This document shows positions 9,416-25,280 of a stretch of 64,000 nucleotides of DNA, one piece after another; position 1 is the stretch's first letter; each line of letters opens with the position of its first letter. The DNA is from a virus. The DNA lies in the IMG/VR virus record IMGVR_UViG_3300036780_000119, positions 1 through 64,000 of that record, one strand, 5' to 3'. A program made the translations under genes and the position numbers. The notes below the pieces were generated by a model, which was given only the letters and a program-made list of their open reading frames with translations, was not told where the DNA came from and did no database searches.

Positions 9416-9470
9416 TGCCCGGCCAGGTCTCAATCGTGCCCCCCAGCACCAAAGACCAGCACGCCGGGCA
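9416..9470 (+). ncRNA. TIGR-like dual-spacer hairpin unit
   Basis: Stem tgcccggc/gccgggca; CCA-ggtctcaat-CG..CCA-aagaccagca-CGC. Confidence 0.5.
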
Positions 9471-9535
9471 GCAAAGTCCCCCAGCGTCCCCCGGTCTCGT
9501 GGTCACAAACGGGTCACGGGACGCTGGGGGACCTG

Positions 9536-9608
9536 GGGGCCTTGGCGCAGCAGGTAGCGCGCCGCCATGGCATGGCGGAGGTCGCCGGTCCGATTCCGGC
9601 AGGCTCCA
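9536..9608 (+). tRNA. tRNA-Ala(GGC)
   Basis: Cloverleaf, G3:U70 pair. Confidence 0.9.
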
Positions 9609-9609
9609 C

Positions 9610-9681
9610 GGGGGTGTAGCTCAGGGGCAGAGCGCCTGCCTTGCAAGCAGGATGTCGCCGGTCCGAATCCGGCCTCCTCCA
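9610..9681 (+). tRNA. tRNA-Ala(TGC)
   Basis: Cloverleaf, G3:U70 pair. Confidence 0.9.
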
Positions 9682-9716
9682 CGGTTTAAAGGCGGCGGTG
9701 GGCTGCTGTCCCGCCA

Positions 9717-9789
9717 CGAGGTGAAGGGGATGCGGTGCCCCGCCTGGTTTGGGACCAGGAGATACGGCGTTCGACTCGCTGCACCTCGA
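9717..9789 (+). tRNA. tRNA-Pro(TGG)
   Basis: Cloverleaf, loop TTTGGGA. Confidence 0.85.
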
Positions 9790-9790
9790 C

Positions 9791-9867
9791 CGGGCTATGG
9801 CGCAGCTTGGTAGCGCGCGCCCTTCGGGAGGGCGAGGCCGCCTGTTCAAATCAGGCTAGCCCGACCA
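9791..9867 (+). tRNA. tRNA-Pro(CGG)
   Basis: Cloverleaf, encoded CCA. Confidence 0.95.
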
Positions 9868-9917
9868 GTGAGCCACCCATCCCTGATCCGTGTCCCAAAG
9901 CGACGGCGGTGGCTCAC
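9868..9917 (+). ncRNA. TIGR-like dual-spacer hairpin unit
   Basis: Stem gtgagccacc/ggtggctcac; CCA-tccctgatc-CGTGTCCCA-aagcgacgg-CG. Confidence 0.65.
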
Positions 9918-9922
9918 TTCCT

Positions 9923-9995
9923 GGCTGTCTAGCTCAAACGGTAGAGCGGCGCCCTGAAAAGGCGCAGGTTGAGGATTCGACCGCCTCGGCAGCCA
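9923..9995 (+). tRNA. tRNA-Phe(GAA)
   Basis: Cloverleaf, loop CTGAAAA. Confidence 0.9.
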
Positions 9996-10058
9996 CTTGG
10001 GACGGTGTGGACCTCTTTCTTTGGAGGGAGAGGGTAGGCGCTGCACCGTCCCACCATC

Positions 10059-10131
10059 GCGGGCGTAACTCAATGGCTGAGAGTCCCGGCCTTCCAAGCC
10101 GGTCATGCGAGTTCGATTCTCGTCGTCCGCT
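10059..10131 (+). tRNA. tRNA-Gly(TCC)
   Basis: Cloverleaf, GCG start, U73. Confidence 0.9.
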
Positions 10132-10213
10132 CTGGTGCAGCCGGACAGCCGGTAAGGGCGCTCACCGCAATAGAGGGCTGCTGGGCGGAATCGCGCCGCT
10201 GCGCCGTGACCAC

Positions 10214-10288
10214 GCGCCGCTAACTCAGCCAGGTCAGAGTAGCGGATTCTTAATCCGCGAGCCGAGAGTTCGAATCTCTCGCGGCGCA
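10214..10288 (+). tRNA. tRNA-Lys(CTT)
   Basis: Cloverleaf, loop TTCTTAA. Confidence 0.9.
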
Positions 10289-10289
10289 C

Positions 10290-10375
10290 GGGGGTGTGGC
10301 GGAATTGTGGTAGACGCGCCAGGCTCAAGTCCTGGTGGGCTGCGGCCCGTGAGAGTTCGATCCTCTCCGCCCTCA
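10290..10375 (+). tRNA. tRNA-Leu(CAA)
   Basis: Cloverleaf with long variable arm. Confidence 0.9.
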
Positions 10376-10389
10376 CATTTTGCTTGCGA

Positions 10390-10461
10390 TGCCCGTTCGT
10401 CTAACTGGCAGGATGCCGCGTTCTGGGCGCGGTGGTCGTGGTTCGAATCCACGGCGGGCAG
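10390..10461 (+). tRNA. tRNA-Gln(CTG)
   Basis: Cloverleaf, U1-A72. Confidence 0.9.
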
Positions 10462-10464
10462 CTT

Positions 10465-10785
10465 TCCCCGGCTAAGCCAAAGTACGTCCGTTCCCCCACG
10501 GGTACTGCGCTAGCCGGGGACCCTGTTCTCCCCGGCTGGCCATTTCGCCAAACGCTTGCCCATAGTAGGCTCGCTGGCCGGGGCCTGTTCCACCTGGCTG
10601 GCTAAACACGCTTCGTGTGCCCATATTTTTAACGCCGGCCAGGGGGTTGTTTCCCGGCCGGTCATAGGGTAGTCGTGAATCCATCGGGCTAGACACCGGC
10701 CGGGGTTTCGTTTCTGATTTCTCCCTGGCCGTCCCGCCGGGTCAAGGCAAGCACCGTTACCCAATGATCCCTCGCCGGGCGGGAC
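10465..10785 (+). ncRNA. Array of five TIGR-like stem-loop dual-spacer units
   Basis: Five GC-rich stems each enclosing G(C/T)(C/T)A-N9/10-CG(N4-5)CCA-N9/10-C(G/A)C, joined by pyrimidine-rich linkers. Confidence 0.75.
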
Positions 10786-10787
10786 AG

Positions 10788-10858
10788 GCCCCTGTAGCTC
10801 AATGGCAGAGCACTGTCCCCGTAAGGCAGTGACCGCGGTCCGACTCCGCGCGGGGGCT
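10788..10858 (+). tRNA. tRNA-Thr(CGT)
   Basis: Cloverleaf, loop CCCGTAA. Confidence 0.85.
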
Positions 10859-10866
10859 CGCAACCC

Positions 10867-11058
10867 GTGGAAGAGTGGTTCATCGTGTGGGCGAACGGTA
10901 TTCCTATGACAGTGGACGAGATGCATCGAGTCGCGTTGCTGCGGGCGGCGGGGTGTGAGTGCCCGGTGCCGCTGCTGGGTGAGCGGCCGGGGGTAGGACC
11001 ACGCTGCCGGCTTTGTAACACGCAAGCCCGATCGGCCGGGGACGACACCGGCTCCTAA
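10867..11058 (+). CDS. Small Cys-motif hypothetical protein
   Basis: CxC and CxxC; fills the gap between tRNAs. Confidence 0.5.
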   Translation: MEEWFIVWANGIPMTVDEMHRVALLRAAGCECPVPLLGERPGVGPRCRLCNTQARSAGDDTGS

Positions 11059-11064
11059 GGTCAG

Positions 11065-11147
11065 GCGCCCGTGGCGGAACGGAATACGCGCACGCTTGAG
11101 GGGCGTGTGCCCGTCAGGGCATGAGGGTTCAACTCCCTCCGGGCGCA
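11065..11147 (+). tRNA. tRNA-Leu(GAG)
   Basis: Cloverleaf with long variable arm. Confidence 0.9.
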
Positions 11148-11151
11148 CCGT

Positions 11152-11222
11152 GCCGGCTTAGCTCAGGGTAGAGCGGCGGTCCTGTAAACCGCAGGTCAGG
11201 GGATCGGACCCCCTAGCCGGCT
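11152..11222 (+). tRNA. tRNA-Thr(TGT)
   Basis: Cloverleaf; atypical T-loop ATCGGAC. Confidence 0.8.
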
Positions 11223-11255
11223 CTCATCCTCCCGCACCCGTGGAAAGGCGGTGCG

Positions 11256-11633
11256 TTGTTGAAGAAGAAACATGTGGCCGCCGTCATCGGCGTGCTGATC
11301 CTTTTCGTGCTCGCGCATTCCTACGGGATCGCGATGCTCGGCGGTGCCGCCCTGGCCACCGGGTATGTCATCGACGTCCGGCTGAAACCGCGGTCCGCGT
11401 GCGGGACGTGCGGTGGCCGGGGTGGGCACGGCGGCTGGCTGTTCGGCTGGGGCCAGTCCAGCTGCCTGGACTGTGGTGGCGCGAAAACGCATGTGCGGTG
11501 GGGTGCCCGGCGGTTCGGTGGCCCGGCCGCGAAGACGGAGTACCGGCTGCAGCGGGAAGCGAAACGCCGCGGGTACCGGCGTTTAGGTGGCCGTTGGGGT
11601 AATTGGCAGCCCGCCGGGTTTTGGTCCCGGTAG
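11256..11633 (+). CDS. Membrane protein with CxxCxGxG motifs
   Basis: GAAAGG RBS, two TM segments, CGTCGGRG/CLDCGG. Confidence 0.6.
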   Translation: MLKKKHVAAVIGVLILFVLAHSYGIAMLGGAALATGYVIDVRLKPRSACGTCGGRGGHGGWLFGWGQSSCLDCGGAKTHVRWGARRFGGPAAKTEYRLQREAKRRGYRRLGGRWGNWQPAGFWSR

Positions 11634-11659
11634 TTCAGGTCCGAGTCCTGAACGGCCAG
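11588..11659 (+). tRNA. tRNA-Gln(TTG)
   Basis: Acceptor tggccgt/acggcca, loop TTTTGGT; overlaps 3' end of upstream ORF. Confidence 0.85.
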
Positions 11660-11906
11660 CGGTTCATGGCAAGACGTGGGAGATATGTAAAGTGACTCAG
11701 GAGATTCCTTTGCGCATCAAGTACCGGGACGTGTCGAATGGGCATCACCAGTCCCGGGCGTCCAACAGTGGCGTGAACAGGCACCGCGGCGAAGCGGATA
11801 AGAACCGGCTCGCCGCCGCGCAGGATCAGACGCGCCGTAACCAGAAAATTCTTGTGCTCGCCGGGGGGCGTAAACGCGCCTGGCGGTGGAGCGTGCAGTG
11901 AGCCGG

Positions 11907-11979
11907 GCCCTTGTAGCTCAGGTGGCAGAGCGCTTCCTCGGTATGGAAGAGGTCAGCAGTTCAATTCTGCTCAAGGGCT
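11907..11979 (+). tRNA. tRNA-Thr(GGT)
   Basis: Cloverleaf, loop TCGGTAT. Confidence 0.9.
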
Positions 11980-11983
11980 CTGC

Positions 11984-12055
11984 GCGGACGTAGTGTTAAT
12001 GGCAGCACAGCACCTTGCCGAGGTGTAAGCGCGGGTCCGAGTCCCGCCGTCCGCT
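11984..12055 (+). tRNA. tRNA-Gly(GCC)
   Basis: Cloverleaf. Confidence 0.9.
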
Positions 12056-12181
12056 CTAGGGGGCCGGGTTCCATGCGGGGTTACTATCCTTCCTTACCCG
12101 CCGGTGGGCGCTGGTTCACCGACCTGGCCCTCCTTGTTTGTCCTGGCTGTCTTTCGCTGCATGGGGGCAGCCAGGGCTTTC

Positions 12182-12272
12182 GCGTCCGTGGCGGAATATA
12201 GAAGGTATACGCGTACGGTTCAGGTCCGTATACCCCTGTGGGGTGCTGAGAGTTCGAATCTCTCCGGGCGCA
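12182..12272 (+). tRNA. tRNA-Leu(CAG)
   Basis: Cloverleaf, enlarged D-loop, long variable arm. Confidence 0.85.
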
Positions 12273-12274
12273 CG

Positions 12275-12329
12275 ATCCCAGCCAAGCCATATGACCTGCG
12301 GTTCCCGCATTTCACTCGCTGACTGGGGT
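12275..12329 (+). ncRNA. TIGR-like dual-spacer hairpin unit
   Basis: AGCCA-tatgacctg-CGGTTCCCG-catttcact-CGCT inside a stem. Confidence 0.6.
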
Positions 12330-12334
12330 TTGGG

Positions 12335-12423
12335 GGAGCATTCGCCTAGTGGCCTAGGGCGCCGCACTGCTAATGCGGTAGGCGTGTTCAAGCGTCTCGC
12401 AGGTCCGAATCCTGCATGCTCCG
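12335..12423 (+). tRNA. tRNA-Ser(GCT)
   Basis: Cloverleaf, long variable arm, G73. Confidence 0.9.
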
Positions 12424-12425
12424 CT

Positions 12426-12625
12426 GTGCAGCCCCGGCCGGCCCACGAGGTGTTGCTGATTCTCATGGGACCTCCAGCTGGCTGGGGCTGCACGCAAGGG
12501 TGTTCCCCGCAGGCCATTCGCCGGACAGCGCACCTTTCTCATAGGAGGGACGCCTGCGGGGGGCCAGCGCGTGGGGGCTGGGGCCAAAGGTGAACCCCGT
12601 TCAGAGTGGATACGTCCCAGCCCCC
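12426..12625 (+). ncRNA. Three further, more divergent TIGR-like hairpin units
   Basis: Stems 12426-12493, 12505-12561 and 12573-12625, each with CCA-N9+..TCA-N9-C(G/A). Confidence 0.55.
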
Positions 12626-12639
12626 GCCGGGGGGGGCGT

Positions 12640-12729
12640 GGAGGGTCAACCGGGCAGGCGTACCGGCTCCCGCTGGAAACGGGATGGGCGTGCCACGGGC
12701 GCGCTGGAGATCATGTCTTCGGCTCTCCG
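12640..12729 (+). tRNA. tRNA-Ser(GGA), atypical
   Basis: Acceptor ggagggt/gctctcc, loop CTGGAAA, T-loop ATCATGT. Confidence 0.7.
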
Positions 12730-12879
12730 CGAGGTGTGGCACCGGCCCCGCAAGAGGGGGTATGCCTGGCGGCTGGCCGTCGGCTGGGCTCCGGAGGTGC
12801 CCAGAGTGTCCCCTGGCAGGGGGGTGCGAGGACGGCCATGGCTTCCCTAGGTAAACAAAACTGGCCGGATATGACCGGG

Positions 12880-12905
12880 TAGCTGCATTAAAACGCTACT
12901 AGTTT
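12880..12905 (+). promoter_or_regulatory. Recurrent promoter motif, likely leaderless mRNA
   Basis: TAGCTGCA-N12-TAGTTT, 7 nt before GTG at 12913. Confidence 0.65.
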
Positions 12906-12912
12906 CGGTGGC

Positions 12913-13395
12913 GTGAAACTCGCAGAAGCACTAGCACTCCGCAGCGACCAGCAGAAGAAACTCGCCCAGCTCAGCCACGAGATCCGGGGGGCGGCCCGCT
13001 ACCAGGAAGGCAGCGAACCCGCCGAGGACGCTGCCGGGCTGCTCAACCAGGCGCACGGCATCATCGGCGACCTGGAACGGCTGATCCGGGCGGTTAACCG
13101 CACCAACACGGCCACGCTCCTGCCCGGCAGTGGCGGGATGACGCTGACCGATGCGATCGCCCGCCGGGACGCTCTCGGGCAGCACCGCACCCTGTGCGCC
13201 GACGCCGCAGCGGCAGCGTCCAGCGATGGCAGGTTCGCGTTCCGGCAGCTGCGGTCCGAACTGCGCACCATAACCAGTCTGCCGGTGGCCGAGCTGCGCC
13301 GGCAGGCCGACGAGCACGCGCGGCAGCGCCGCGAACTTGACGTCCAGATCCAGCAGGCCAACTGGAACACCGACCTGCTGGAGGCAGACGAGTAG
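12913..13395 (+). CDS. DIP1984-family coiled-coil protein
   Basis: MKLAEAL..R.D...YQEG..PAED...IRAVNRTN..T...MTLTDAIARRD...IQQANW..DL. Confidence 0.85.
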   Translation: MKLAEALALRSDQQKKLAQLSHEIRGAARYQEGSEPAEDAAGLLNQAHGIIGDLERLIRAVNRTNTATLLPGSGGMTLTDAIARRDALGQHRTLCADAAAAASSDGRFAFRQLRSELRTITSLPVAELRRQADEHARQRRELDVQIQQANWNTDLLEADE

Positions 13396-13398
13396 GCA

Positions 13399-13630
13399 AG
13401 AAGGGCGGGAGAGTTGGTAGCTGCTGGCTTCCGGACTGGGGCGAGTGCAGAACCCACACCTAGCTGACCGCTAATCAGCGCCAGGCGTGCGGGGCCGCGC
13501 CAGAGTTAACAGGGCAGCCCTGGACAATGCACCGCGAGGCACCGGGTCAAGCGCACATGTCACTACCGTGCATTGACCAGTCCTGGCCGGCAGTGAGGGA
13601 TGGGTAAGGGGACACGTCCCGCCCCCTTCT
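13399..13630 (+). ncRNA. Structured RNA candidate downstream of the DIP1984-family gene
   Basis: Nested helices 13399-410/13617-630, 13421-439/13577-593, 13525-532/13568-575. Confidence 0.6.
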
Positions 13631-13720
13631 GGGGAAGATGAACCTGCCATGGGGTGGGCCCCGATTCGAAATCGGGTGGGCCGGGGTAACCGGCTGGGGA
13701 TCGCGCCCTCCGTCTTCCGC

Positions 13721-13903
13721 GTGAACTATACAGAGTTTGAGCAGAGGCTGGTGAACGTGGACCGGTTTGAGGTTATTGACCACCGCGCCCCAGTCCTCTC
13801 CGGTAAGCCAGCACGGGTCCTGGTCGTTCACGACGCCATAGTCCAGGTCACGTTCCAGGATGACGGGCACACGCTCAAGGTGTTCCTGTCGGATGACCGC
13901 TGA
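13721..13903 (+). CDS. Hypothetical protein
   Basis: VDRFEVIDH...QDDGHTLKVF; TGATG overlap. Confidence 0.6.
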   Translation: MNYTEFEQRLVNVDRFEVIDHRAPVLSGKPARVLVVHDAIVQVTFQDDGHTLKVFLSDDR

Positions 13904-14274
13904 TGCGGTGGCGGTTCGTGGGTTACCGGCTGGGCCGCTGCTGGGGACGGGTGAAACGGGTCCTGCTGCTGCGGGACGTGCGCATGTTCTGCCAGCGTGG
14001 CCGCCGCGGCTACTCCGACGAAGACCTGTGGAGTTTCGACTGCTACATCGCCCGGGTGATGAGCCGCGGTATCGCTCAACTCGCTGATGTCACCCATTCG
14101 TGGCCGTCGAACATGGAGTGGCCGCAGCCCGAAGACTGGGACACGTACCTGCGGGACCTGTCCCGGCGGCTGGGCCACTGGACGGATGAGAATTTCCTCG
14201 ACCGGGACGCGTTCGAGGTGACCCGCGCCGCAGTTGAGGAGTTCGGGAAGAACTTCGGCCACTTCTGGGACTGA
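13903..14274 (+). CDS. Hypothetical phage protein
   Basis: QRGRRGYSDEDLWSFD...FWD. Confidence 0.7.
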   Translation: MRWRFVGYRLGRCWGRVKRVLLLRDVRMFCQRGRRGYSDEDLWSFDCYIARVMSRGIAQLADVTHSWPSNMEWPQPEDWDTYLRDLSRRLGHWTDENFLDRDAFEVTRAAVEEFGKNFGHFWD

Positions 14275-14289
14275 AAGGGAGGAAAGGTA

Positions 14290-15018
14290 GTGAGCAGCAT
14301 AGGAACGACCGCCGCCAGCCCCAGTGGCCTGTTCGCGGTGCAGGTGCTGTCTGCGGTACCCACCGGCCAGCGTGCGCCGCTGGAACTGTACCGGCGTGTG
14401 GATGGCCGCGTGTTCGTCATAGGCCATCCTGGCCAGCCGTATGTGCTGTCGGTGCGCAACCGCACCAGCGGGCGCATTGAGGTGGTCAGCACGGTGGACG
14501 GGCGCAACACCCTGGAGGACGAACCTGGCAGCCTGGACTGCCGGGGGCTGGTGTTCGCAGCCCTGTCGGAGGGCGAGTTCACGGGGTTCCGGCTGAACAG
14601 CGACAAGACACGCCAGTTCATTTTCAGCGACCCCGGGCAGAGCGTGGCCGCGCAGGCCACCGGCTCCACGGAGAACGCTGGTATTATCGGCCTGGCCGCT
14701 TACAGCGAGCGGAAAATCTGGCAGGCCACCTGCCAGAACCATCCGGGGCCTTTGCTGCGCAGCCATGGGGTAAGCGGTCAGTGCGCCAGCGTCGCCGCAG
14801 CTTCCGCAGATATGGCGGTGCCGAGCCTGGGCACGGCCATGGGCCAGGTGCAGGACGACCGGGTCACCTCGACGCGCTTCACCCGGTCCGGCGATGCGGA
14901 TCTGCTGGCCATCGGGTACGGAACCCGTGAGCACCTGGAGGCTATGGGTGTGTTCGGGCCACCCGAACCCAACCCGTTCCCGGCCACCGGCGCCACGGGA
15001 TACGCGAACTATGCGTAG
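14290..15018 (+). CDS. Conserved hypothetical beta-rich protein
   Basis: Strong RBS; Y.L.VRN....RIEVV.TVDGRN motif. Confidence 0.7.
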   Translation: MSSIGTTAASPSGLFAVQVLSAVPTGQRAPLELYRRVDGRVFVIGHPGQPYVLSVRNRTSGRIEVVSTVDGRNTLEDEPGSLDCRGLVFAALSEGEFTGFRLNSDKTRQFIFSDPGQSVAAQATGSTENAGIIGLAAYSERKIWQATCQNHPGPLLRSHGVSGQCASVAAASADMAVPSLGTAMGQVQDDRVTSTRFTRSGDADLLAIGYGTREHLEAMGVFGPPEPNPFPATGATGYANYA

Positions 15019-15041
15019 CATGATCGTGGAATATCACCCGC

Positions 15042-15068
15042 TAGCTGCACGCAGAGGGTGGCTAGTTT
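15042..15068 (+). promoter_or_regulatory. Recurrent promoter motif, likely leaderless mRNA
   Basis: TAGCTGCA-N13-TAGTTT, 6 nt before ATG at 15075. Confidence 0.65.
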
Positions 15069-15074
15069 CTGCGC

Positions 15075-15974
15075 ATGGTCTTGTTCATATTCGCAATCAT
15101 CGTCGCAGTAATAGGTGCCGTGCTGGTGCTGGTCGCCAGGCCAGCCACCACATCTGCTGGTGCCAGGGCGGGAATGCGGGCAGGTGGCGCCGCGGCTGTC
15201 CTGCTCGGCATCATCTGTTTCTTCCTGGCCACGACAACGACGGTCGGCCCGTCAGATGTCGGCATCGAAACCGCGTTCGGCCACGTCGACGGCGACCTCA
15301 CCCCCGGTATTCACCTGGTCGCCCCGTGGGAAAGCGTCACCGTCTGGGATGACTCGGTCCAGCAAACCCAGTTCGACAGCGCGAAAGGCTCGTCTGGGTG
15401 CCTGCGGATCAGGATCGCAGGCCAGCAGTCCGCGTGCCTGGACGTGAATATTTTCTGGCGGGACAACCCGGCCGGGTCAGACGCCCAGTTCCGCGAGTAC
15501 CGCACCTTCCCGCGGGTTGCCGGGGCGTTCATGTCCCGGGCGGTTGTCACCCGGTATTTCAACAGCGTGTTTGAGAAGTTCGACCCGGTGCAGCAGGTCG
15601 CGTCCGGCACCACGTCCGGCACGACCGTGTCCACGCTCGCCGCGCAGGTGCTGACCGACATGCGCACCGCCTACGCCGGGACGATCTTCATCCAGTCGCT
15701 GTCCGCTGGGCAGATCCAGTACGACTCCTATGTCGAGTCAGCCCTCTCATCGGTGATCAAGGCGAAGGCGAACACGGCGGTCGCGCAGCAGAACGAGCAA
15801 ACCGCCCACGATCAGGCCACCGCCAACGCCGAGCTGGAGAAGAAACTCAACGCCGCGGTGATCGAGCAGGACTGCCTGAACATGACCCAGCAGCAGTTGC
15901 AGGCGGGGAACACGCTGCCGCAGGGCTGGAACTGCACCGGCAGCTCGGCTGTCGGCATCCTCGCCGGGCACTGA
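15075..15974 (+). CDS. SPFH/Band-7 domain membrane protein
   Basis: Two TM helices then V.P..VGI...FG......PG.H...PW; C-terminal coiled coil. Confidence 0.85.
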   Translation: MVLFIFAIIVAVIGAVLVLVARPATTSAGARAGMRAGGAAAVLLGIICFFLATTTTVGPSDVGIETAFGHVDGDLTPGIHLVAPWESVTVWDDSVQQTQFDSAKGSSGCLRIRIAGQQSACLDVNIFWRDNPAGSDAQFREYRTFPRVAGAFMSRAVVTRYFNSVFEKFDPVQQVASGTTSGTTVSTLAAQVLTDMRTAYAGTIFIQSLSAGQIQYDSYVESALSSVIKAKANTAVAQQNEQTAHDQATANAELEKKLNAAVIEQDCLNMTQQQLQAGNTLPQGWNCTGSSAVGILAGH

Positions 15975-15976
15975 CC

Positions 15977-16363
15977 ATGCGCATCAAGACCGCCGCCCTG
16001 GCCGGCCTCGCCGTGCTGCTGCTGGCTGCGGGATGTGGCAGCAGCCCCCGGCCACGCCACACCGTCACGCCACCGGTGGTGACACCGCTGCAGCAGGCCA
16101 TGCTGAAAGCGGAAATCTGCCTCAGTGAGCAGCCCGACATTCCCGGCACCGCCGGCGTGGGCACCCCCATCACGGCCGCCTGGCTGCTCGCCCACCCGGC
16201 CGCGGGCACGGTCAGGTGGGTGGAATGTGCGCAGCCCGCCGGGACGGTGAAGCCCCTGCTGGAATGCCTGGCCCCGGCGCTGCGCCGCCAGGGTGTCACC
16301 CGGCAGGCCCTCCCAGCGGACGTCAGGGCGCTGGCGAACTGCATCACCGGGGCACCGCAGTAA
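15977..16363 (+). CDS. Putative lipoprotein
   Basis: LAAGC lipobox. Confidence 0.6.
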   Translation: MRIKTAALAGLAVLLLAAGCGSSPRPRHTVTPPVVTPLQQAMLKAEICLSEQPDIPGTAGVGTPITAAWLLAHPAAGTVRWVECAQPAGTVKPLLECLAPALRRQGVTRQALPADVRALANCITGAPQ

Positions 16364-17357: not shown

Positions 17358-17429
17358 AGTTCAGTTCGATTCTGAGGGAGAAGACAATGGGCAGTTTCTG
17401 TAAACAGGTGCAGCGAACATGAACGCTGC

Positions 17430-18367: not shown

Positions 18368-18829
18368 GGCACGTTACCCTAACAATCCTGTTGCGTCATG
18401 AAAACACCCCCTCTCCAGAACGGTGGCCCACCCATGGCAGCCGAACCCCGCACCGTACCCGTATCCGTCGTGTTCCCCCGCTCCACCGTCAACGCAATGA
18501 AACAGGCACACGGGGAAGCGGCACGATCCCGCTGGATCCTCGCAGTGATCCAGGACCGGCTCCACAGCGGCCACGCCGGCCCACACGAACAGGCACTCCT
18601 GAACGGAGACGGCAGTGACCAGGATGCGGGCCGGAGACTTCCCACTGAATGAATGGACCGAACACGACACCGCCAGATGCCCCGAATGCGGCGGCCGGCC
18701 ATGTGAGCTGCGCCGCTGCCTGAAAGTTCTCGGCCCATCCCACCTGCCCGGCATGCAGATGAAAATGGACGCGGCAGAAAGGTGGGAAGGCCGCTGCACC
18801 GTGTGCGGCTGGACCGGCCCCGCCACCCC

Positions 18830-19207
18830 TCACCCCTCGGGCAGCCGGTAGATACACCGGTGCCGCTGGCCGGGATGCCGCCACGCCACGATACGCAGCG
18901 TGTATCTGGCCCCGGTAGCCACGATGCTCCAGTCCTGGGTGCGGGGCGGGAACTGGATCGTCGTCGGCAGCGGAGTGTCCATGTCCCTCACGTTAAGAGT
19001 CCCCGGGCCGGCCCAGAAGTCAGCAAAGACACCCCGGCCCGAGGTGCCCGTGGTCACCGTTCCCGGGTATTTGCTGCGGCAGTCCGCTTCCAGGATGATC
19101 ACATCCGGTGTGGCGTACAGCACGTCAACGTTGTTCACCACGAGCTGTCCCTGGGTGACGGTGATCCCGGCGGCGTGGTCAGTCACTGCATGCTCTGATC
19201 CCTGCAT
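18830..19207 (-). CDS. Hypothetical protein
   Basis: Protein-like composition. Confidence 0.45.
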   Translation of the reverse strand: MQGSEHAVTDHAAGITVTQGQLVVNNVDVLYATPDVIILEADCRSKYPGTVTTGTSGRGVFADFWAGPGTLNVRDMDTPLPTTIQFPPRTQDWSIVATGARYTLRIVAWRHPGQRHRCIYRLPEG

Positions 19208-19241
19208 AAACCGGTCATCCTAACTCACCGGCCGGATCCCA

Positions 19242-19314
19242 GCGCCTGTAGCTCAACTGGACAGAGCGCCGCCTTCTAAGCGGCAGGCCGCAGGTTCGAC
19301 CCCTGCCAGGCGCG
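19242..19314 (+). tRNA. tRNA-Arg(TCT)
   Basis: Cloverleaf, loop CTTCTAA. Confidence 0.9.
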
Positions 19315-19378
19315 CAGGGTGGATGCGTATCACCCCCGTTTTGCACGGGGATGGGAGGCGGCGCATCCACCCGTTTTG

Positions 19379-19450
19379 GCCCCGTTGGAGGAACGGCAAC
19401 TCACCCGGTTCTCAGCCGGGAGATCACCGGGTCAGCACCGGTACGGGGTA
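19379..19450 (+). tRNA. tRNA-Glu(CTC)
   Basis: Cloverleaf; atypical T-loop GTCAGCA. Confidence 0.8.
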
Positions 19451-19581
19451 CGGAGACCAGGCACGGCCGCCTAGAGATCCTCACCGATTCCATGGACGTG
19501 TCAGGGGATTGCTCGTGCATAGGTGAACAAAGTCCGTTGGAAACCCGGCAAGCGTACCGCCCTCTACCTGGTCTCCCCGTT

Positions 19582-19664
19582 GCCGCTGTTGCTCTGCTGG
19601 CTAGGGGCCGCCGGGCCTTCAACCCGGATAAGCGACGCGGGTTCAATTCCCGCCAGCGGCACCA
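19582..19664 (+). tRNA. tRNA-Glu(TTC), atypical
   Basis: Loop CCTTCAA, 9-nt variable region, encoded CCA. Confidence 0.75.
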
Positions 19665-19686
19665 AACACGCCCAAATATTACCGGC

Positions 19687-19713
19687 TAGTTGCAGCCCGC
19701 ATAGCCATACGCT
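19687..19713 (+). promoter_or_regulatory. Recurrent promoter motif before tRNA-Met
   Basis: TAGTTGCA-N13-TACGCT. Confidence 0.6.
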
Positions 19714-19718
19714 AGCAG

Positions 19719-19791
19719 CGCGGTGTGGAGGAGTTCGGTACCTCGGCAGGCTCATAATCTGCAGGCCTCAGTTCAAATCTGAGCACCGCTA
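19719..19791 (+). tRNA. tRNA-Met(CAT), initiator-like
   Basis: Cloverleaf, C1xU72 mismatch. Confidence 0.85.
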
Positions 19792-19792
19792 C

Positions 19793-19866
19793 TGCGGGGT
19801 GGCCAATGCGGGAAGGCACCGGATTCATGCTCCGGCATATGCGGGTTCGATCCCCCGTCCCCGCTA
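19793..19866 (+). tRNA. tRNA-Met(CAT)
   Basis: Cloverleaf, loop TTCATGC. Confidence 0.8.
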
Positions 19867-19917
19867 CGAGGTGCCACGGTGACCGTATCCTGCTCCGGTC
19901 ATCGCGGCGCCACCCAT

Positions 19918-19991
19918 TCTCCCGTGGCCTAAATTGGCAGGGCTCTGGATTGTTAATCCAGTGTGTAGACGTTCGAATCGTCTCGGGAGAG
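19918..19991 (+). tRNA. tRNA-Asn(GTT)
   Basis: Cloverleaf, G73. Confidence 0.9.
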
Positions 19992-20010
19992 CGGAAGGGT
20001 GGATACATCC

Positions 20011-20427
20011 GTGCCATATGCGGATCCCGGGCGCCAACGTGAATATCAGCGTTTTTGGATTGCTCAGCGCCGGGCAACGTGGTTCACCGGGAAAGTATGC
20101 GACGAGTGTGGGACGGCGCAGAACCTTGAGCTAGACCACAAGGATCCGTCAACCAAAGTTACTCATGCCGTATGGAGTTGGTCAGCTAAGCGACGAGAAG
20201 CAGAACTCGCAAAGTGCCGCGCCTTGTGCTTCAAATGCCACCTGGCCAAATCCGGTGGTGAACATGCCAAAGGTGAACATAACGGCATGGCTAAGCTAAC
20301 GGAGAAGGATGTTATAACTATCCGCGCGTCGCCTTTGGGACACCGTCCTCTCGCTCGGGCTCTCGGTGTGGATGAGGCGACCGTCCGTGGTATTCGTTCG
20401 GGCCGGACATGGAAACACGTTGCGTAG
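20011..20427 (+). CDS. HNH homing endonuclease with C-terminal HTH
   Basis: CDECG..NLELDHKDP...CRALCFKCH; GEHNGMAKLT. Confidence 0.85.
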   Translation: MPYADPGRQREYQRFWIAQRRATWFTGKVCDECGTAQNLELDHKDPSTKVTHAVWSWSAKRREAELAKCRALCFKCHLAKSGGEHAKGEHNGMAKLTEKDVITIRASPLGHRPLARALGVDEATVRGIRSGRTWKHVA

Positions 20428-20438
20428 TTGTGCAGCGT

Positions 20439-20512
20439 GGGGGTGTAGCTCAGTTGGTTAGAGCATCGGATTGTCGATCCGAAGGTCGCGCGTTCAAGTC
20501 GCGTCATCCCCG
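20439..20512 (+). tRNA. tRNA-Asp(GTC)
   Basis: Cloverleaf. Confidence 0.95.
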
Positions 20513-20609
20513 CTGGGAGGGCCGAGGTTCGCCCTTGGAGTAAAGCCGGGATCGCGTTAACTCCCGGTCCGGTCCTCCCGCCCACCAGAACCACCCGGAT
20601 ATCATCCGG

Positions 20610-20635
20610 TAGTTGCAGGCACCTACCGGTAGTTT
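20610..20635 (+). promoter_or_regulatory. Recurrent promoter motif, likely leaderless mRNA
   Basis: TAGTTGCA-N12-TAGTTT, 7 nt before ATG at 20643. Confidence 0.65.
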
Positions 20636-20642
20636 TTCCTGC

Positions 20643-20870
20643 ATGGTGCGAGGGGAAATCCCTGGTGAATTTGTTCAGTTCACATGCCGGCTGATCCCGT
20701 CTGTGGCGCAGGTACTGGCCGATGCGTCCACGCGTGAGGGATTGTCCCGGACAGACATCACGAACCGCGCCTTGCAGGTGTACAGCTTCCTGCTGGCCGA
20801 ATCACACGCCGGCAGTGATCTGCTCATCCGCCGGCCCGGTGATGAGCTGATGCTGGTGCGCCTGTTCTGA
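20643..20870 (+). CDS. Ribbon-helix-helix-like protein
   Basis: FTCRL...LADASTREGLSRTDITNRALQVY. Confidence 0.65.
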   Translation: MVRGEIPGEFVQFTCRLIPSVAQVLADASTREGLSRTDITNRALQVYSFLLAESHAGSDLLIRRPGDELMLVRLF

Positions 20871-20874
20871 AAAT

Positions 20875-20946
20875 GCCCGCTTAGCTCACTGGGAGAGCAC
20901 CCCTTTGACGGGGGGGAGGCAGGAGGTCCGATTCCTCCAGTGGGCA
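20875..20946 (+). tRNA. tRNA-Val(GAC)
   Basis: Cloverleaf. Confidence 0.9.
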
Positions 20947-21190
20947 CATGTCAAATCCTGGAAGGGGAACACGGGGTGCCTGAGGATCCGGAAAGCGGCT
21001 GGAAGTGGCATGTCGCCCGCGCCGAAGAAGCACTTGAAGCAGCCGCCCGGTCCGGCCTGCCAACCGAACGGATCCAGGCCCACACCGCACGGGCCCGCGG
21101 CCATCTTGAGGTAGCCAGGGAGATGCGGTCGGCCTGGACGTGGCGCCGGTTCGAGGGACAGGTGATGGCGGGAGAAACGGCCCCAGGCAA

Positions 21191-21598
21191 GTGAAACTGT
21201 ATCTGGCAGGGCCGATGCGCGGCTGGCCCGAATTCAATCACCCTGGTTTCCGTGCCGCCGCCAGGCTGCTCCGCGACGCCGGCCATGTGGTGTTCAGCCC
21301 AGCAGAACACGACCGGGCGATGGGCCTGGACACGTCGGGAATGCGGGGCGACCTGGCTGAGACTGAGCATGTGGTGCCGTTGCGGGTTCTCCTCGCCGCG
21401 GACTTGGCCTGGATCTGCGGGGAGGCGCAGGGCTTGGTGGTGATGCCCGGGTGGGAAGCGTCCCTGGGGTGCCGGGCGGAGGTGGCGGTTGCGTTCACGC
21501 TGGGGTTGCCGGTGTGGCCACTGGATGAATTCCTCGCTGTGGGAGTGGATGCCCGGCGCGTGCTGGCGGTTCCTGCGATCACGGTGGAGGCCGCGTGA
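21191..21598 (+). CDS. DUF4406 / nucleoside deoxyribosyltransferase-like protein
   Basis: KLYLAGPMRG.PEFN...PGWEASLGCRAE. Confidence 0.85.
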   Translation: MKLYLAGPMRGWPEFNHPGFRAAARLLRDAGHVVFSPAEHDRAMGLDTSGMRGDLAETEHVVPLRVLLAADLAWICGEAQGLVVMPGWEASLGCRAEVAVAFTLGLPVWPLDEFLAVGVDARRVLAVPAITVEAA

Positions 21599-21987
21599 CC
21601 GTGACAGTGGTCCGCGGGGACGCTCGTGATCTGCCGTTGCCGGACGGCTCGGTGGACTTGATCATTACCAGCCCCCCCTATTTCGGATTGCGTTCCTACA
21701 CGGACGCCGGCGAGCACTACGACGGCCAGATCGGCTCCGAGGCGACCCCCGCCGAGTGGCTGGCGGCTGCGCGCAACGTGGCTGCTGGTGTGGCGGCACC
21801 GGGCTATCCCCGTGGGCGGTGGGGCGCTGGCTGCGGGTGCTGCGATCATCGGGGCTGGACTCCAGGCCGGCGGTGGCACCGGGATTCTCGTGATCCTGCT
21901 TGGTTTGATGACTGGCGGGGTGGGCGTGTTCTTCGTCGCGTGGGGTCTTGGTTTCAGCAGCGGCTAAGGCGACGGCGGGAAAGCTAA
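21595..21987 (+). pseudogene. Truncated N4/N6 DNA methyltransferase
   Basis: GDARDLPLPDGSVDLIITSPPY; similarity stops after about 57 aa; no FxGxG motif. Confidence 0.7.
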
Positions 21988-22018
21988 GCCCTGCGTAACT
22001 ACCTGGTGGTGAGAGTCC

Positions 22019-23014
22019 CTAAGAGAACAGCTCACCTTGCCCGTCGATTTCGGGTGCCTGGCAGCGGGAACATAGCCGCCCGGTGCGACGGGGCCGTTCC
22101 CGGTCGGCTCCCCATCCCCAGGTGAGGCGTTCCGCGGGCACGTCCAGGCCGAGGGAGCGGGCTTCGGCTTCGATGTCGTGAAGTTCGGCAGCGGTGTCGG
22201 GGTAGAACAGTTCGAGGCCGTAGATTTCGCCTTTCTGGGCGAACGCCCCGCATAGGCAGTCGCCAGACATGTGCAGGTGCACTGTCACCTCGTTGACCGG
22301 CAGCGTCCCGGGTTCGCAGAGCCGGTGTTCGGCGTGGTTGTGGGCCTGGCGGCAGCGGTGCCGTTCCCGGTATTCGCTCATGTGCCCGTCGGTCCAGTGG
22401 ACGATCGGGGAGCACCACACCATGGCACCTTTGCGGTCTACCTCATCGGCGTTGCGCCACCGTCGTTCTGATTCGCCCCAGCGCATGCCGTCGAGGAACA
22501 CGATCTGGCCGGCCCGGCCGCGTTTGCCGACGAGTTGGCTGCGGAGTCCCTCGAACGCGCGTTCTTTCAGCCGCTGGTACATGAGGTAGTGGCCGGCTGG
22601 GCCGGGGAAGCCTTTCCACACGGGCCGTCCTTCCCCGGTGCGGGGGAGGACCCGCCCGCATACCAGGTCCCGGTAGGTGTCTTGCCCGTGGGGCTGGAAC
22701 AGTTCCATTCCCCATGCTGCGGCGCAGGCTTGCACGTAGCGGGCGGTGCCGGGGACGCGGATCCTGGTGTCGGCCAGCGCGACCTGGTGGACGCGTTCCC
22801 GCAGCAGGTGTGACAGGAGGGTTGAGTCGTTGCCGCCGGAGAACAGCAGGACCACGAACTGTGGTGACCACTGTTCGCAGACCTCGTCCAGGATTTGATG
22901 GGAGCGGGTGATGGCCTGGTTGAGGGTCATGCCTGCGTAGCTGAGGGCTTTCGGTGGGGTTTTCGCGAGGACGTCTGGCATGCCGGGGAGCAGCCCGGTG
23001 GTGCGGGTTTTCAC
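22019..23014 (-). CDS. PAPS reductase-family (PP-loop) protein
   Basis: LLFSGGNDS PP-loop, GMRWGESERR, SGDCLCGAF. Confidence 0.85.
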   Translation of the reverse strand: MKTRTTGLLPGMPDVLAKTPPKALSYAGMTLNQAITRSHQILDEVCEQWSPQFVVLLFSGGNDSTLLSHLLRERVHQVALADTRIRVPGTARYVQACAAAWGMELFQPHGQDTYRDLVCGRVLPRTGEGRPVWKGFPGPAGHYLMYQRLKERAFEGLRSQLVGKRGRAGQIVFLDGMRWGESERRWRNADEVDRKGAMVWCSPIVHWTDGHMSEYRERHRCRQAHNHAEHRLCEPGTLPVNEVTVHLHMSGDCLCGAFAQKGEIYGLELFYPDTAAELHDIEAEARSLGLDVPAERLTWGWGADRERPRRTGRLCSRCQAPEIDGQGELFS

Positions 23015-23061
23015 GCGCTGTCCATGTCGCAACCGCAGGCAGCCTCGTGTTTCACGGCCGA

Positions 23062-23087
23062 AACTTAGGAGCCGGGGCGTGCAACTA
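23062..23087 (-). promoter_or_regulatory. Recurrent promoter motif (minus strand)
   Basis: TAGTTGCA-N12-TAAGTT. Confidence 0.6.
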
Positions 23088-23137
23088 CCCGGTGGTGAGA
23101 ACCACGGTTCGTGGCCGCCGGCGAGGCGGTGCACTAG

Positions 23138-23210
23138 GCCCCTGTAGCTCAACGGAAAGAGCATCTGCCTACGGAGCAGACGGTTGCGCGTTCGAATCGC
23201 GTCAGGGGTA
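23138..23210 (+). tRNA. tRNA-Arg(ACG)
   Basis: Cloverleaf. Confidence 0.95.
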
Positions 23211-23249
23211 CGCGGGAAGGCGACATCGCCTTTCCCAGAGTGTTGTTTT

Positions 23250-23321
23250 GCCTGGTTAGCTCAGCGGGAGAGCGCCCCGTCCACGCCGGGGAAGCGGGAG
23301 GTTCGACACCTCCACCGGGCA
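23250..23321 (+). tRNA. tRNA-Val(CAC)
   Basis: Cloverleaf, loop TCCACGC. Confidence 0.85.
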
Positions 23322-23322
23322 C

Positions 23323-23397
23323 GGTGCCTGTAGCTCAGCCGGTCAGAGCGCCTGGTTGTGGGCCAGGAGGACGCGCGTTCAAGTCGCGTCAGGCACC
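23323..23397 (+). tRNA. tRNA-His(GTG)
   Basis: Cloverleaf with G-1:C73. Confidence 0.9.
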
Positions 23398-23422
23398 CGG
23401 AAGGAAAGGCGACGAAAAGCGG

Positions 23423-23740
23423 ATGAGATTCCGGACCGAAACCGGGTCGGTGTATGAGATCAAGGGGCACCGGATGCGGCGTCTCACCGGGACACGCCCG
23501 CCGACACGGAACCAGCGTGGTGAGGGTGTGTGGCGTGAGTACACGGCGATCGTGCCGGCCCCGCGGGTGGGTGCCCGGCCACTGGTGCAGTGGGGCTGGG
23601 AAGGTGACGTGCTCCGGCAGACCCTGCTGTCGGAGGTGGTGGAGGTTTTTGATGGCATCCCCCTGGAGCATGATGGGCCGGATTTCTATCTGGGGACGCC
23701 GGTCACTGGAGCGCACATCCGGCGGCGTGTCCTGAACTGA
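23423..23740 (+). CDS. Hypothetical protein
   Basis: MRFRTETGSVYEI, upstream purine-rich RBS. Confidence 0.6.
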   Translation: MRFRTETGSVYEIKGHRMRRLTGTRPPTRNQRGEGVWREYTAIVPAPRVGARPLVQWGWEGDVLRQTLLSEVVEVFDGIPLEHDGPDFYLGTPVTGAHIRRRVLN

Positions 23741-23781
23741 AAAAAGCGACGGAAAGCGACAGCAAGAGATGGGAGACGGGC

Positions 23782-24174
23782 ATGCCCGAGAGAGTGACGG
23801 TCCGCAAAGACGAGCTCCTGAAAGTGCTGCGGGCGAACCGGGAGGCGCACCGGGGCAAGTTCGAGCGGGCGTATGAGAGGTTCCGCGGGCAGGCGATCGC
23901 CGCGTTGCGGGAGAACCTCGACGCGGCCCGGGTGGGTGGCCCGGTGGTGCTGGTGGTTGGCTTGCCGGTGCCGGAGGATCACACGGAGGATTACGACCGG
24001 GAGATCCGGATGCTGGAGATGCATCAGGGCACCGAGGTCGAGATTGCGTCGCGGTTGTTCGACCAGATTGTGATGGACCGGTGGGGGTGGAAGGCGTCGT
24101 TCGCGGCCAACACCGAGTCCTACCTGGTTGAGGAGGTTCCGGAACGGTGTGACGCCGGCGAGTTCTACCAGTAA
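23782..24174 (+). CDS. Conserved hypothetical phage protein
   Basis: ELLKVLRANRE.H...P.DHTEDYDR.I.MLE. Confidence 0.75.
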   Translation: MPERVTVRKDELLKVLRANREAHRGKFERAYERFRGQAIAALRENLDAARVGGPVVLVVGLPVPEDHTEDYDREIRMLEMHQGTEVEIASRLFDQIVMDRWGWKASFAANTESYLVEEVPERCDAGEFYQ

Positions 24175-24183
24175 GAAGCCCTG

Positions 24184-24624
24184 GTGGCCTACACGAGACA
24201 ACAGCGACGCGAGTACCAGGCCCGGCGCCGTGCCGCCATTCGAGCGGAGTTGATCGCCATGCTCGGTGGCCGGTGCGTGATATGCGGGACGGTGGATGAC
24301 CTGGAGTTTGATCACATAGACCCGCAGACCAAGGTTTTCACCATTGCCTGTGGCCTAGATCGGCCGCGTCCGATCCTGGTAGCGGAAGCCGCTAAGTGCC
24401 AGCTTTTGTGCTGCATAGATCACAAGGTCAAAACGAAAGGAGATGGTGAACAGCCGAACCGGGCCCGTGGTGAGCGTGTCGCAGGGGCCAAGCTGACCGC
24501 AAATGACGTTCGGGAGATCCGGATATCTGATCTGCCGACGCAGCAGCTAGCACTCCTGTACGGCGTGTGTATCTCAACAATCCAAGAGGCCCGTGCGGGG
24601 CGTACCTGGAGGCATGTGGCCTAG
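24184..24624 (+). CDS. HNH homing endonuclease with C-terminal HTH
   Basis: LGGRCVICG..LEFDHIDP...KCQLLC..H; paralog of 20011-20427. Confidence 0.85.
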   Translation: MAYTRQQRREYQARRRAAIRAELIAMLGGRCVICGTVDDLEFDHIDPQTKVFTIACGLDRPRPILVAEAAKCQLLCCIDHKVKTKGDGEQPNRARGERVAGAKLTANDVREIRISDLPTQQLALLYGVCISTIQEARAGRTWRHVA

Positions 24625-24704
24625 CCAGAGATGGGCAGTGGCTGCCCCGTCGCCTGTAAAGCGACCGCCTTTGGGTACTGGAGGTTCGATTCCTCCCTCT
24701 GGCA
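24624..24704 (+). tRNA. tRNA-Tyr(GTA)
   Basis: Cloverleaf with variable arm. Confidence 0.85.
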
Positions 24705-24957
24705 CGAACGCGGGGCGGTTCCCGCTAAGTGGCCACACCGCAGGAACCGCCCCGCTGCCTTGGATCAGGACTTGCGTCCTTTGAGATGGGATCCAGGTGG
24801 CGGCCCCGGCCGTGCCCCGGTGAGGAACTACGGGGCGCGGACGGGGACCGCCGGACTGGCTCTGATCCTCCTAGGCGATGGCCGGCCGTGAAGTGGGCCA
24901 TGGCGGTAGGAGTTGTGACGATCCGGGCCAGTTGTTCGCTCACAGTAACACGACCAA

Positions 24958-25031
24958 GCTCTCGTGGCGCAAGGGATTAGCGCACGCGGCTCCGGACCGC
25001 GAGGTTGCCAGTTCGAATCTGGCCGAGGGCA
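24958..25031 (+). tRNA. tRNA-Arg(CCG)
   Basis: Cloverleaf. Confidence 0.9.
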
Positions 25032-25032
25032 C

Positions 25033-25124
25033 GCAGGGGTGGCCAGCCAGCCACAAACCATGCGGCCGGGCCCGCAGAACAGCGACCTAGGCCCGTTGAG
25101 CCACCGCTGGCTGGCCACCCCTGC
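25033..25124 (+). ncRNA. TIGR-like unit with extended loop
   Basis: 19-bp stem; AGCCA-caaaccatg-CG...CCG-ttgagccac-CGCT. Confidence 0.6.
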
Positions 25125-25127
25125 TGA

Positions 25128-25200
25128 TGGCCCGTAGCTCAGGGGACAGAGCGGCGGTTTCCTAAACCGCAGGGCGCGGGTTCGAGTCCCGCCGGGCCAG
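25128..25200 (+). tRNA. tRNA-Arg(CCT)
   Basis: Cloverleaf. Confidence 0.9.
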
Positions 25201-25202
25201 CT

Positions 25203-25280
25203 GGGGGTGGCAGGCCGGCCACCGGCAGCTCCGTGGGATCCCCCTCCCATAACACCGTTCACGGCCGGCCTGCTACCCCT
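25203..25280 (+). ncRNA. Divergent TIGR-like unit
   Basis: Long stem; GGCCA-ccggcagctc-CGTGGGA..TCCCA-taacaccgt.. Confidence 0.45.

Follow-up and report, generated by a model that had tools for sequence, protein, structure and literature searches.

The window analysed here is a stretch of 64,000 nucleotides (nt), the first 64 kb of the IMG/VR virus record IMGVR_UViG_3300036780_000119, and its subject is a transfer RNA (tRNA) island whose spacers hold short hairpin units with the layout of guide RNAs. The record is a phage from soil, of 100,466 bp, 96% complete and with ~68% G+C. The genes of the window include those of a tape-measure protein, tail-fibre proteins and a serine integrase, and the capsid protein of the phage is closest to the capsids of actinobacterial phages. 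The tRNA island extends from 9222 to 25361, with all of its tRNAs on the plus strand. Besides the 35 tRNAs recognised by ARAGORN, it contains a tRNA-Leu(CAG) with a long variable arm at 12182-12272 (+), missed by ARAGORN and matched by Rfam with 43 bits. The 3' CCA is encoded by four of these 36 tRNAs (Trp, Pro(cgg), Ile and Glu(ttc)), the other 32 being without it.

We have folded every tRNA-tRNA spacer of the island. Nearly all spacers of at least 50 nt were occupied by one hairpin or more, with a long G+C-rich closing stem and an interior of 20-55 nt, beginning 0-2 nt past the upstream tRNA and stopping 2-8 nt short of the next. At the level of sequence, the grammar shared by the guide-like cassettes of the island is, point for point, that of the published stem-loop TIGR guide RNAs (tigRNAs), and the same phage encodes a Tas protein outside the window.

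Hairpin units between the tRNA genes

TIGR-Tas systems were first described in 2025 (Faure et al. 2025, PMC12045711). In stem-loop TIGR arrays, a variable palindromic stem surrounds paired boxes (Faure et al. 2025, Science, PMC12045711; TIGRFinder preprint 10.64898/2026.09.09.750476). According to the same two sources, the published unit contains, twice, a box C (CCA, CGA, CTA or CAA), a 9-nt spacer and a box D (TG or CG), with the two halves at most 15 nt apart and a C:G pair linking box C to box D. Taken singly, tigRNA units resemble small nucleolar RNAs (snoRNAs), and they direct a Nop-domain Tas protein to an 18-bp DNA site, 9 nt per strand (PMC12045711; 10.64898/2026.09.09.750476).

The units considered, eight of which (all those below except the tandem array) had been listed in a preliminary description of the window as dispersed units of the same grammar, were the following.

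9415-9471, plus strand: variant unit; 9-bp stem, correct closing boxes, half A canonical (CCA-N9-CG); half B requires a 10-nt spacer or CAA as box C; loop of 12-13 nt; internal, with no flush tRNA.
9867-9918, plus strand: canonical tigRNA unit; 11-bp stem, CCA at 9877-9879, spacer A at 9880-9888, CG, loop TGTC, CCA at 9895-9897, spacer B at 9898-9906, CG; starts on the last base of tRNA-Pro(cgg) and stops 4 nt before tRNA-Phe.
10465-10785, plus strand: tandem tigRNA array of five units, filling the whole spacer from tRNA-Gln(ctg), 2 nt upstream, to tRNA-Thr(cgt), 2 nt downstream.
10465-10520, plus strand: array unit 1; spacer, loop and spacer of 9/5/9, perfect.
10529-10583, plus strand: array unit 2; 10/5/9.
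10589-10646, plus strand: array unit 3; CTA box, 9/5/9.
10656-10710, plus strand: array unit 4; TCA...CA, T:A closing pair.
10731-10785, plus strand: array unit 5; TCA, 10/4/9.
12274-12330, plus strand: near-canonical unit; CCA-N9-CG at 12287-12300, loop GTTC, CCG-N9-CG at 12305-12318, interrupted 12-bp stem; 1 nt past tRNA-Leu(CAG) and 4 nt before tRNA-Ser(gct).
12426-12493, plus strand: non-conforming hairpin; 17-bp stem; 1 nt past tRNA-Ser(gct).
12502-12564, plus strand: variant unit; 13-bp stem, correct closing boxes, half B canonical (TCA-N9-CG); half A requires a 12-nt spacer; internal.
12571-12627, plus strand: variant unit; 14-bp stem, correct closing boxes, half B canonical (TCA-N9-CG); half A has CC for box D or else, with a 1-nt loop, a spacer of 11 nt.
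25033-25124, plus strand: variant unit; 19-bp stem, CCA-N9-CG and CCG-N9-CG halves of 14 nt each, 28 nt apart, the loop having its own hairpin; 0 nt past tRNA-Arg(ccg) and 3 nt before tRNA-Arg(cct).
25203-25280, plus strand: weak candidate; 18-bp stem; 1 nt past tRNA-Arg(cct) and 6 nt before tRNA-Cys.

The units could be described by a common model, in which a stem of 9-19 bp is followed by CCA-N9-CG, a loop of 4-5 nt and a second CCA-N9-CG, the first C of box C pairing with the G of the opposite box D. Membership of the stem-loop kind calls for a flanking palindromic stem of at least 5 bp, variable in sequence among units. All eight listed intervals folded into stable hairpins with closing stems of 8-19 bp, and every stem differed in sequence from the others, in line with the earlier statement that the stems are unrelated. 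The unit at 12274-12330 has the 9/4/9 spacing and deviates by CCG as its second box C; C12287 is paired with G12318 in its minimum-energy fold. A direct reading of the fourth array unit (10656-10710) revealed T and A at the positions of the closing pair, which is a compensatory change.

The full grammar was present in 9867-9918, in 12274-12330 with one box variant, and in the units of the tandem array at 10465-10646. It was only partial in the units starting at 9415, 12502, 12571 and 25033, owing to spacers of 10-12 nt, a variant box or a 28-nt loop, and it failed in 12426-12493 and 25203-25280. The former of these two hairpins has a 34-nt interior with a 3+9+2+6+3+9+2 register and both CCA and TCA, but the box D positions are GC and CA, and it was recovered by no scan (strict, relaxed, high-specificity detector or census). 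The latter can be read in the grammar only if the spacers are of 10 and 12 nt, the loop of 12 nt and the helix shifted by one base, and it was not flagged in the census. Hence, the claim of eight same-grammar units held without reservation for 9868-9917, with one box variant for 12275-12329 and in part for four more. Of the eight, two can be taken as secure and two are probably not members at all; the four variants may either still function or be in decay. The earlier figure of about 13 guides was too high: we count about six to seven strict or near-strict units including the tandem array, four or five variants, and two non-conforming hairpins among the eight.

A hairpin inserted in the loop, also mentioned in the preliminary description, is real in 25033-25124 (28-nt loop); stem-loop arrays with extended loops forming a secondary stem have been described in the TIGRFinder preprint (10.64898/2026.09.09.750476). 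Most units had further been said to begin or end within a few nt of a tRNA. This was correct for five of the eight (those at 9868, 12275, 12426, 25033 and 25203), but not for 12573-12625, which stops 12-14 nt short of the next tRNA, or for the internal units at 9416 and 12505.

We have compared the eight listed units with dinucleotide shuffles. YCA-N9-CG occurred 7 times versus 1.6 (P = 0.003) and YCR-N9-CG 11 times versus 2.5, so that the proposed check of motif spacing came out positive, although the test is biased, since the eight units had been picked by that very motif. A census free of this bias took in every perfect-stem hairpin of at least 9 bp, the signature being a paired C or T followed by CA, with an interior ending in CG. 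On the tRNA strand of the tRNA blocks, the signature was found in 6 of 22 hairpins (9415-9471, 9867-9918, 10530-10583, 12502-12564, 12571-12627 and 25033-25124), versus 13 of 1345 in the pooled background (binomial P = 5e-8). The same blocks reversed, complemented or reverse-complemented gave 0 of 76. The box C:box D pairing is also visible here at the sequence level, 6 of the 22 island hairpins, versus a background of 1%, having CA after the C and C before the G of the closing C:G pair.

Two pattern scans agreed with the census. The strict pattern (CCA-N9-YG, 4-nt loop, CCA-N9-CG, stem of at least 8 bp), run over both strands of the whole genome, matched only the tas locus and 9867-9918, which makes this unit the sole strict match outside that locus. 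The high-specificity detector tolerated no more than a single departure, either a variant box C or a spacer of 10 nt; it accepted loops of 3-8 nt and stems, gaps permitted, with a minimum of 8 or 10 pairs. It returned 9 matches of deviation 0, including 9867-9918, and 3 of deviation 1 on the plus strand of the phage. On reversed or complemented sequence, in which hairpins and composition are preserved, it returned 1 and 4, respectively, summed over eight genomes. Two Tas-less relatives gave three matches, all within coding DNA, from which false positives can be put, conservatively, at ~0.7 per 100 kb of strand. Four matches fell in the 5.5 kb of tRNA blocks (9867-9919, 10465-10520, 10529-10583 and 10589-10646; P = 4e-4). 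A relaxed scan (spacers of 9-12 nt, loops of 3-15 nt, loose boxes) was dropped as a detector for being too permissive, with 60-110 matches per strand.

A Tas protein in the same phage and similar placements in others

The preliminary description had predicted that the effector acts in trans from outside the window, and a tas gene was indeed found beyond it.

Record 93274-94782 (L095:9274-10779), outside the window: tas gene, 502-codon open reading frame (ORF) P0001, recognised by phmmer, profile and fold matches.

A phmmer search of P0001 against the PDB sequences matched 9mty_A with E = 1.7e-6; 9MTY is the TaTasR-tigRNA-DNA complex, according to the data statement of PMC12045711. The core of P0001 has more than 800 homologues, and a profile built from 31 of them matched 9mty_A with E = 3.7e-15 and TasH with 9.2e-5. 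The AlphaFold model of Tas has 212 residues with a predicted local distance difference test (pLDDT) score of at least 90, and Foldseek ranked the complexes of TasR and TasH highest against it (E = 3.6e-7, prob 1.00), with IS110-family bridge recombinases and Nop5 next. Neither the Pfam Nop model PF01798 against the whole phage nor Pfam against P0001 gave a match. The Nop family is too diverged for Pfam, hence the blank result and the need for PDB profile and fold searches. The ORF leaves no room for a RuvC or HNH domain and is therefore of the nuclease-less TasA type. That the phage encodes a cognate, nuclease-less Tas for the island guides is well supported, as are the identity of the core units and the trans-acting nature of the effector. 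On these last two points the preliminary description stands; its observation is otherwise confirmed in part and its interpretation supported in part, the number of guides having been overstated.

The tas gene is itself associated with guide units. The strict pattern occurred eight times around and inside it, with further units there having spacers of 10-11 nt and loops of 5-6 nt, and in-frame tigRNA units occupy both ends of the gene and an internal insert. In the predicted model, low-confidence segments (P0002 residues 145-195 and 302-407) coincide with the gene stretches written as tigRNA units, an arrangement described for disordered tas segments in the TIGRFinder preprint (10.64898/2026.09.09.750476). 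In one unit of the tas locus (record 94061-94112), spacers A and B are nearly identical, which would make for a palindromic target. Genes for RecT and a PD-(D/E)XK nuclease lie directly downstream of tas, and the five ORFs upstream of it had no Pfam match.

On the record, 68 kb separate the island units from tas, a difference of placement that leaves their grammar unaffected, and a canonical array is also present at tas in the same phage. An exact direct repeat of 126 bp joins record positions 1-126 and 100189-100314, the second copy ending 152 nt from the record end. This repeat may be a junction, the genome being circular or terminally redundant; tas would then precede the tRNA island by ~14.6 kb on the same strand.

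We have searched IMG/VR with the Tas alignment and obtained 49 phage loci. Of their parent records, 25 were checked for tRNAs, and six had 19-39 tRNA matches each. Five of these six tRNA-rich records were scanned whole, and the tRNA clusters and tas loci were scanned in the sixth and in one record with a smaller cluster. In G016, a phage of 119 kb with a Tas 44% identical, the detector gave 25 matches genome-wide on both strands (L162-L167); only two adjoin tas, and ten, all oriented like the tRNAs, are in a tRNA cluster of 8 kb (P = 4e-9). Perfect units make up nine of these ten, and the gaps are -2 to 2 nt past a tRNA and 2-3 nt before one. A direct reading of stretch L162 revealed tRNA-Leu, a unit and tRNA-Met in succession, separated by 2-3 nt. 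With its units scattered in this way, a search restricted to the neighbourhood of tas would miss most of the guides of G016. In G019 (173 kb, 54% G+C), two units are flush with tRNAs.

Units on the tRNA strand of tRNA clusters were found in three of the eight Tas phages with such clusters. All 16 tRNA-embedded units of the present phage, G016 and G019 are on the tRNA strand (P = 1.5e-5). Their box D is that of the tas-adjacent array of the same genome, CG in the present phage and G016 and TG in G019. That guides abut tRNA genes in no fewer than three divergent phages suggests RNase P and RNase Z (ribonucleases P and Z) as a concrete route of release. In some units, such as 10465-10520, 9415-9471 and L162 6850-6895, spacers A and B are mutually complementary over 5-6 nt.

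Relatives of the island itself were not found: megablast and blastn of 9200-12900 against deposited phages returned tRNA matches only and no island orthologue. The DUF6847 protein and the serine integrase had no relatives in IMG/VR, and the phages with the closest capsids (G001 and G002, ~80% capsid identity) have neither a tRNA island nor tas.

Proposed release of the units and alternative explanations

The units abut the tRNAs directly, with upstream and downstream gaps of -1 and 4 nt for 9867-9918, 1 and 4 nt for 12274-12330, 0 and 3 nt for 25033-25124, and 2 and 2 nt for the tandem array. A search of 8900-13000 revealed no sigma-70-like promoter, and sites resembling terminators were no commoner there than by chance. 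Together, the gaps of 0-6 nt, the lack of a promoter site in this region and the shared tRNA strand suggest co-transcription with the tRNAs. CCA-less tRNA precursors are cut endonucleolytically by RNase Z after the discriminator, and RNase P cuts each tRNA at its 5' end; with 32 of 36 tRNAs lacking an encoded CCA, those of the island would mostly be RNase Z-type substrates.

From this arrangement we infer how the units could be transcribed, processed, loaded onto TasA and used. Having no space for a promoter of their own, they would be transcribed within the polycistronic tRNA precursor. RNase P, cutting where the downstream tRNA begins, would free a unit on one side, and an RNase Z-type cut past the discriminator of the upstream tRNA would free the other, a release that the geometry makes plausible. 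A flush unit would leave as a hairpin of 50-60 nt with tails of 1-6 nt; in tandem runs, the tRNA-processing cuts would trim the outer ends only. The box pairs would next be bound by a TasA dimer, with the two spacers directing it to a DNA site of 18 bp (9 nt per strand) that TasA would bind or repress instead of cutting. TasA-type proteins have been reported as RNA-guided repressors, and engineered tigRNA-tRNA arrays in yeast yield working tigRNAs (preprint 10.64898/2026.07.30.739390). We thus favour, with a probability of roughly 0.65, that the cassettes are stem-loop tigRNA genes of the TasA encoded by the phage itself (record 93274-94782), freed by tRNA-maturation cuts and guiding this protein.

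Several observations weigh against this reading. The published TIGRFinder thresholds would call only 9868-9917 and, as a borderline case, 12275-12329, and the strict register is not kept by six of the eight listed units. Stem-loop tigRNAs have been reported to have a CUU motif where they are processed; here it stands next to 9867-9918 and 10465-10520 but does not occur consistently. Separating the units within tandem runs requires another nuclease. In five of the eight Tas-bearing phages with tRNA clusters (G012, G014, G017, G022 and G024), no unit was found on the tRNA strand of the cluster, and in G022 a perfect unit with a 16-bp stem (L177 116391-116452) is located between two tRNA genes on the opposite strand, a counter-example to simple co-transcription. 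The sequencing runs containing this sequence were two soil-metagenome DNA runs, one of them perhaps its origin, with no RNA run listed. Finally, box C and box D are both missing from about a dozen of the flush hairpins in the spacers, among them the following.

9477-9533, plus strand: box-less flush hairpin, found by spacer folding.
9998-10053, plus strand: box-less flush hairpin.
10134-10205, plus strand: box-less flush hairpin.
12058-12134, plus strand: box-less flush hairpin.
12140-12177, plus strand: box-less flush hairpin.
19317-19372, plus strand: box-less flush hairpin.
19452-19576, plus strand: box-less flush hairpin.
19870-19911, plus strand: box-less flush hairpin.
23212-23236, plus strand: box-less flush hairpin.
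24706-24755, plus strand: box-less flush hairpin.

The TIGR reading gives no account of these hairpins, and since they are equally flush, a guide function cannot be the only cause of flush placement here. Possible identities include guides that have decayed, a different class of small RNA, and simple structures for processing or insulation.

Targets were sought with the 18-mers of the spacer pairs in both arrangements. None was found within 1 mismatch in this phage and ten related phage records, where matches with 2-3 mismatches were at chance level. The exact 18-mer of unit 9867-9918 had 15 matches in 185,579 genomes, across unrelated phyla and about the number expected by chance. That no spacer pair searched had a target would also be compatible with the units being relics, i.e., tigRNA hairpins copied or recombined into a tolerant non-coding island, now decaying and no longer serving TasA. 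So would the deviations of six of the eight listed units (spacers of 10-12 nt, loops of 12-28 nt, box variants) and the hairpin at 12426-12493, which has lost both box D motifs yet retains the length register. We hold this to be unlikely. The cognate array itself tolerates spacers of 10-11 nt, two units here and nine in the tRNA cluster of G016 are perfect, and the box D matches the resident Tas system in each genome. Random insertion would not place 16 of 16 embedded units on the tRNA strand in three phages.

The box-less hairpins, about a dozen and just as stable and flush, together with the selection of the units by their motif, raise a second alternative, in which all the hairpins are generic structural spacers of a GC-rich tRNA precursor that insulate, mark processing sites or block exonucleases, the CCA/CG register being a coincidence reinforced by the selection. 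Such an account is very improbable for the units as a whole, considering the unbiased census (6 of 22 versus a 1% background and 0 of 76 in control orientations), the restriction of strict-scan matches to the tas locus and 9867-9918, the cognate Tas protein in the genome, and the recurrence of the arrangement in other Tas phages with a genome-specific box D. It may be right for the box-less hairpins, 12426-12493 and 25203-25280. A cis role, in which TasA on the nascent precursor or on matching DNA would regulate phage tRNA expression or processing, is the least probable of all: several phages do have tas together with tRNA clusters (in G019 and G022 the gene is within the cluster or immediately next to it), but the genome of the phage itself contains no match to any spacer pair at up to 1 mismatch, and the published biochemistry gives no hint of RNA targets.

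Whether tigRNA release from tRNA precursors is a wider strategy, with some phages deliberately putting TIGR-TasA guides between tRNA genes for host RNase P and RNase Z to excise them ready-made, we regard as an even bet. If true, it would name at least one host RNase of stem-loop tigRNA maturation, couple guide supply to a strongly expressed tRNA island, and parallel, in a natural setting, both the engineered tRNA-guide polycistrons and the tRNA-snoRNA genes of plants. Searches confined to tas miss guides, as at least a third of the units lie far from tas both here and in G016, and this dispersal matters for cataloguing spacers and for finding natural targets.

Relation to known systems

The tRNA cluster of phage T4 contains small stable RNAs (species 1 and 2) that are not tRNAs and mature from the same precursor, with no known guide function or partner protein. 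TigRNAs and box C/D snoRNAs are thought to be related, which makes the parallel with the dicistronic tRNA-snoRNA genes of plants a notable one. These genes are the nearest natural counterpart of the island. In them, a box C/D-type guide is co-transcribed with a tRNA and released by RNase Z, as proposed for the phage units (Kruszka et al. 2003, EMBO J; ref. 66 of PMC12045711). The plant system differs in being eukaryotic, in serving RNA methylation and in having kink-turns (K-turns) and L7Ae-type proteins, whereas the phage units would be guides for a DNA-binding Tas, with processing deduced from their placement. In the engineered tigRNA-tRNA arrays (10.64898/2026.07.30.739390), guides also alternate with tRNAs and are released by endogenous RNase P and RNase Z; those arrays are synthetic, with dual-repeat 36-nt tigRNAs and TasR in a eukaryote, whereas the present arrangement is natural.

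The closest match in components is that to the stem-loop TIGR arrays with TasA, for example that of Bifidobacterium longum (PMC12045711; 10.64898/2026.09.09.750476). Both have a variable palindromic stem, CCA, a 9-nt spacer and CG or TG occurring twice, and a short loop; a Nop-domain Tas without a nuclease domain; part of the array inside disordered tas segments; and a phage host. Published arrays have been sought and described beside or inside tas, whereas here units are also located in a tRNA cluster, singly or in runs of two to five and flush with tRNA ends. Neither PMC12045711 nor the TIGRFinder preprint (10.64898/2026.09.09.750476) mentions tRNA genes beside natural arrays, and the literature joining both topics, as far as searched, concerns engineered arrays. 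The system is thus a member of the stem-loop TIGR-TasA kind, intragenic units included, and what is new in it is the placement of units among tRNA genes, remote from tas.

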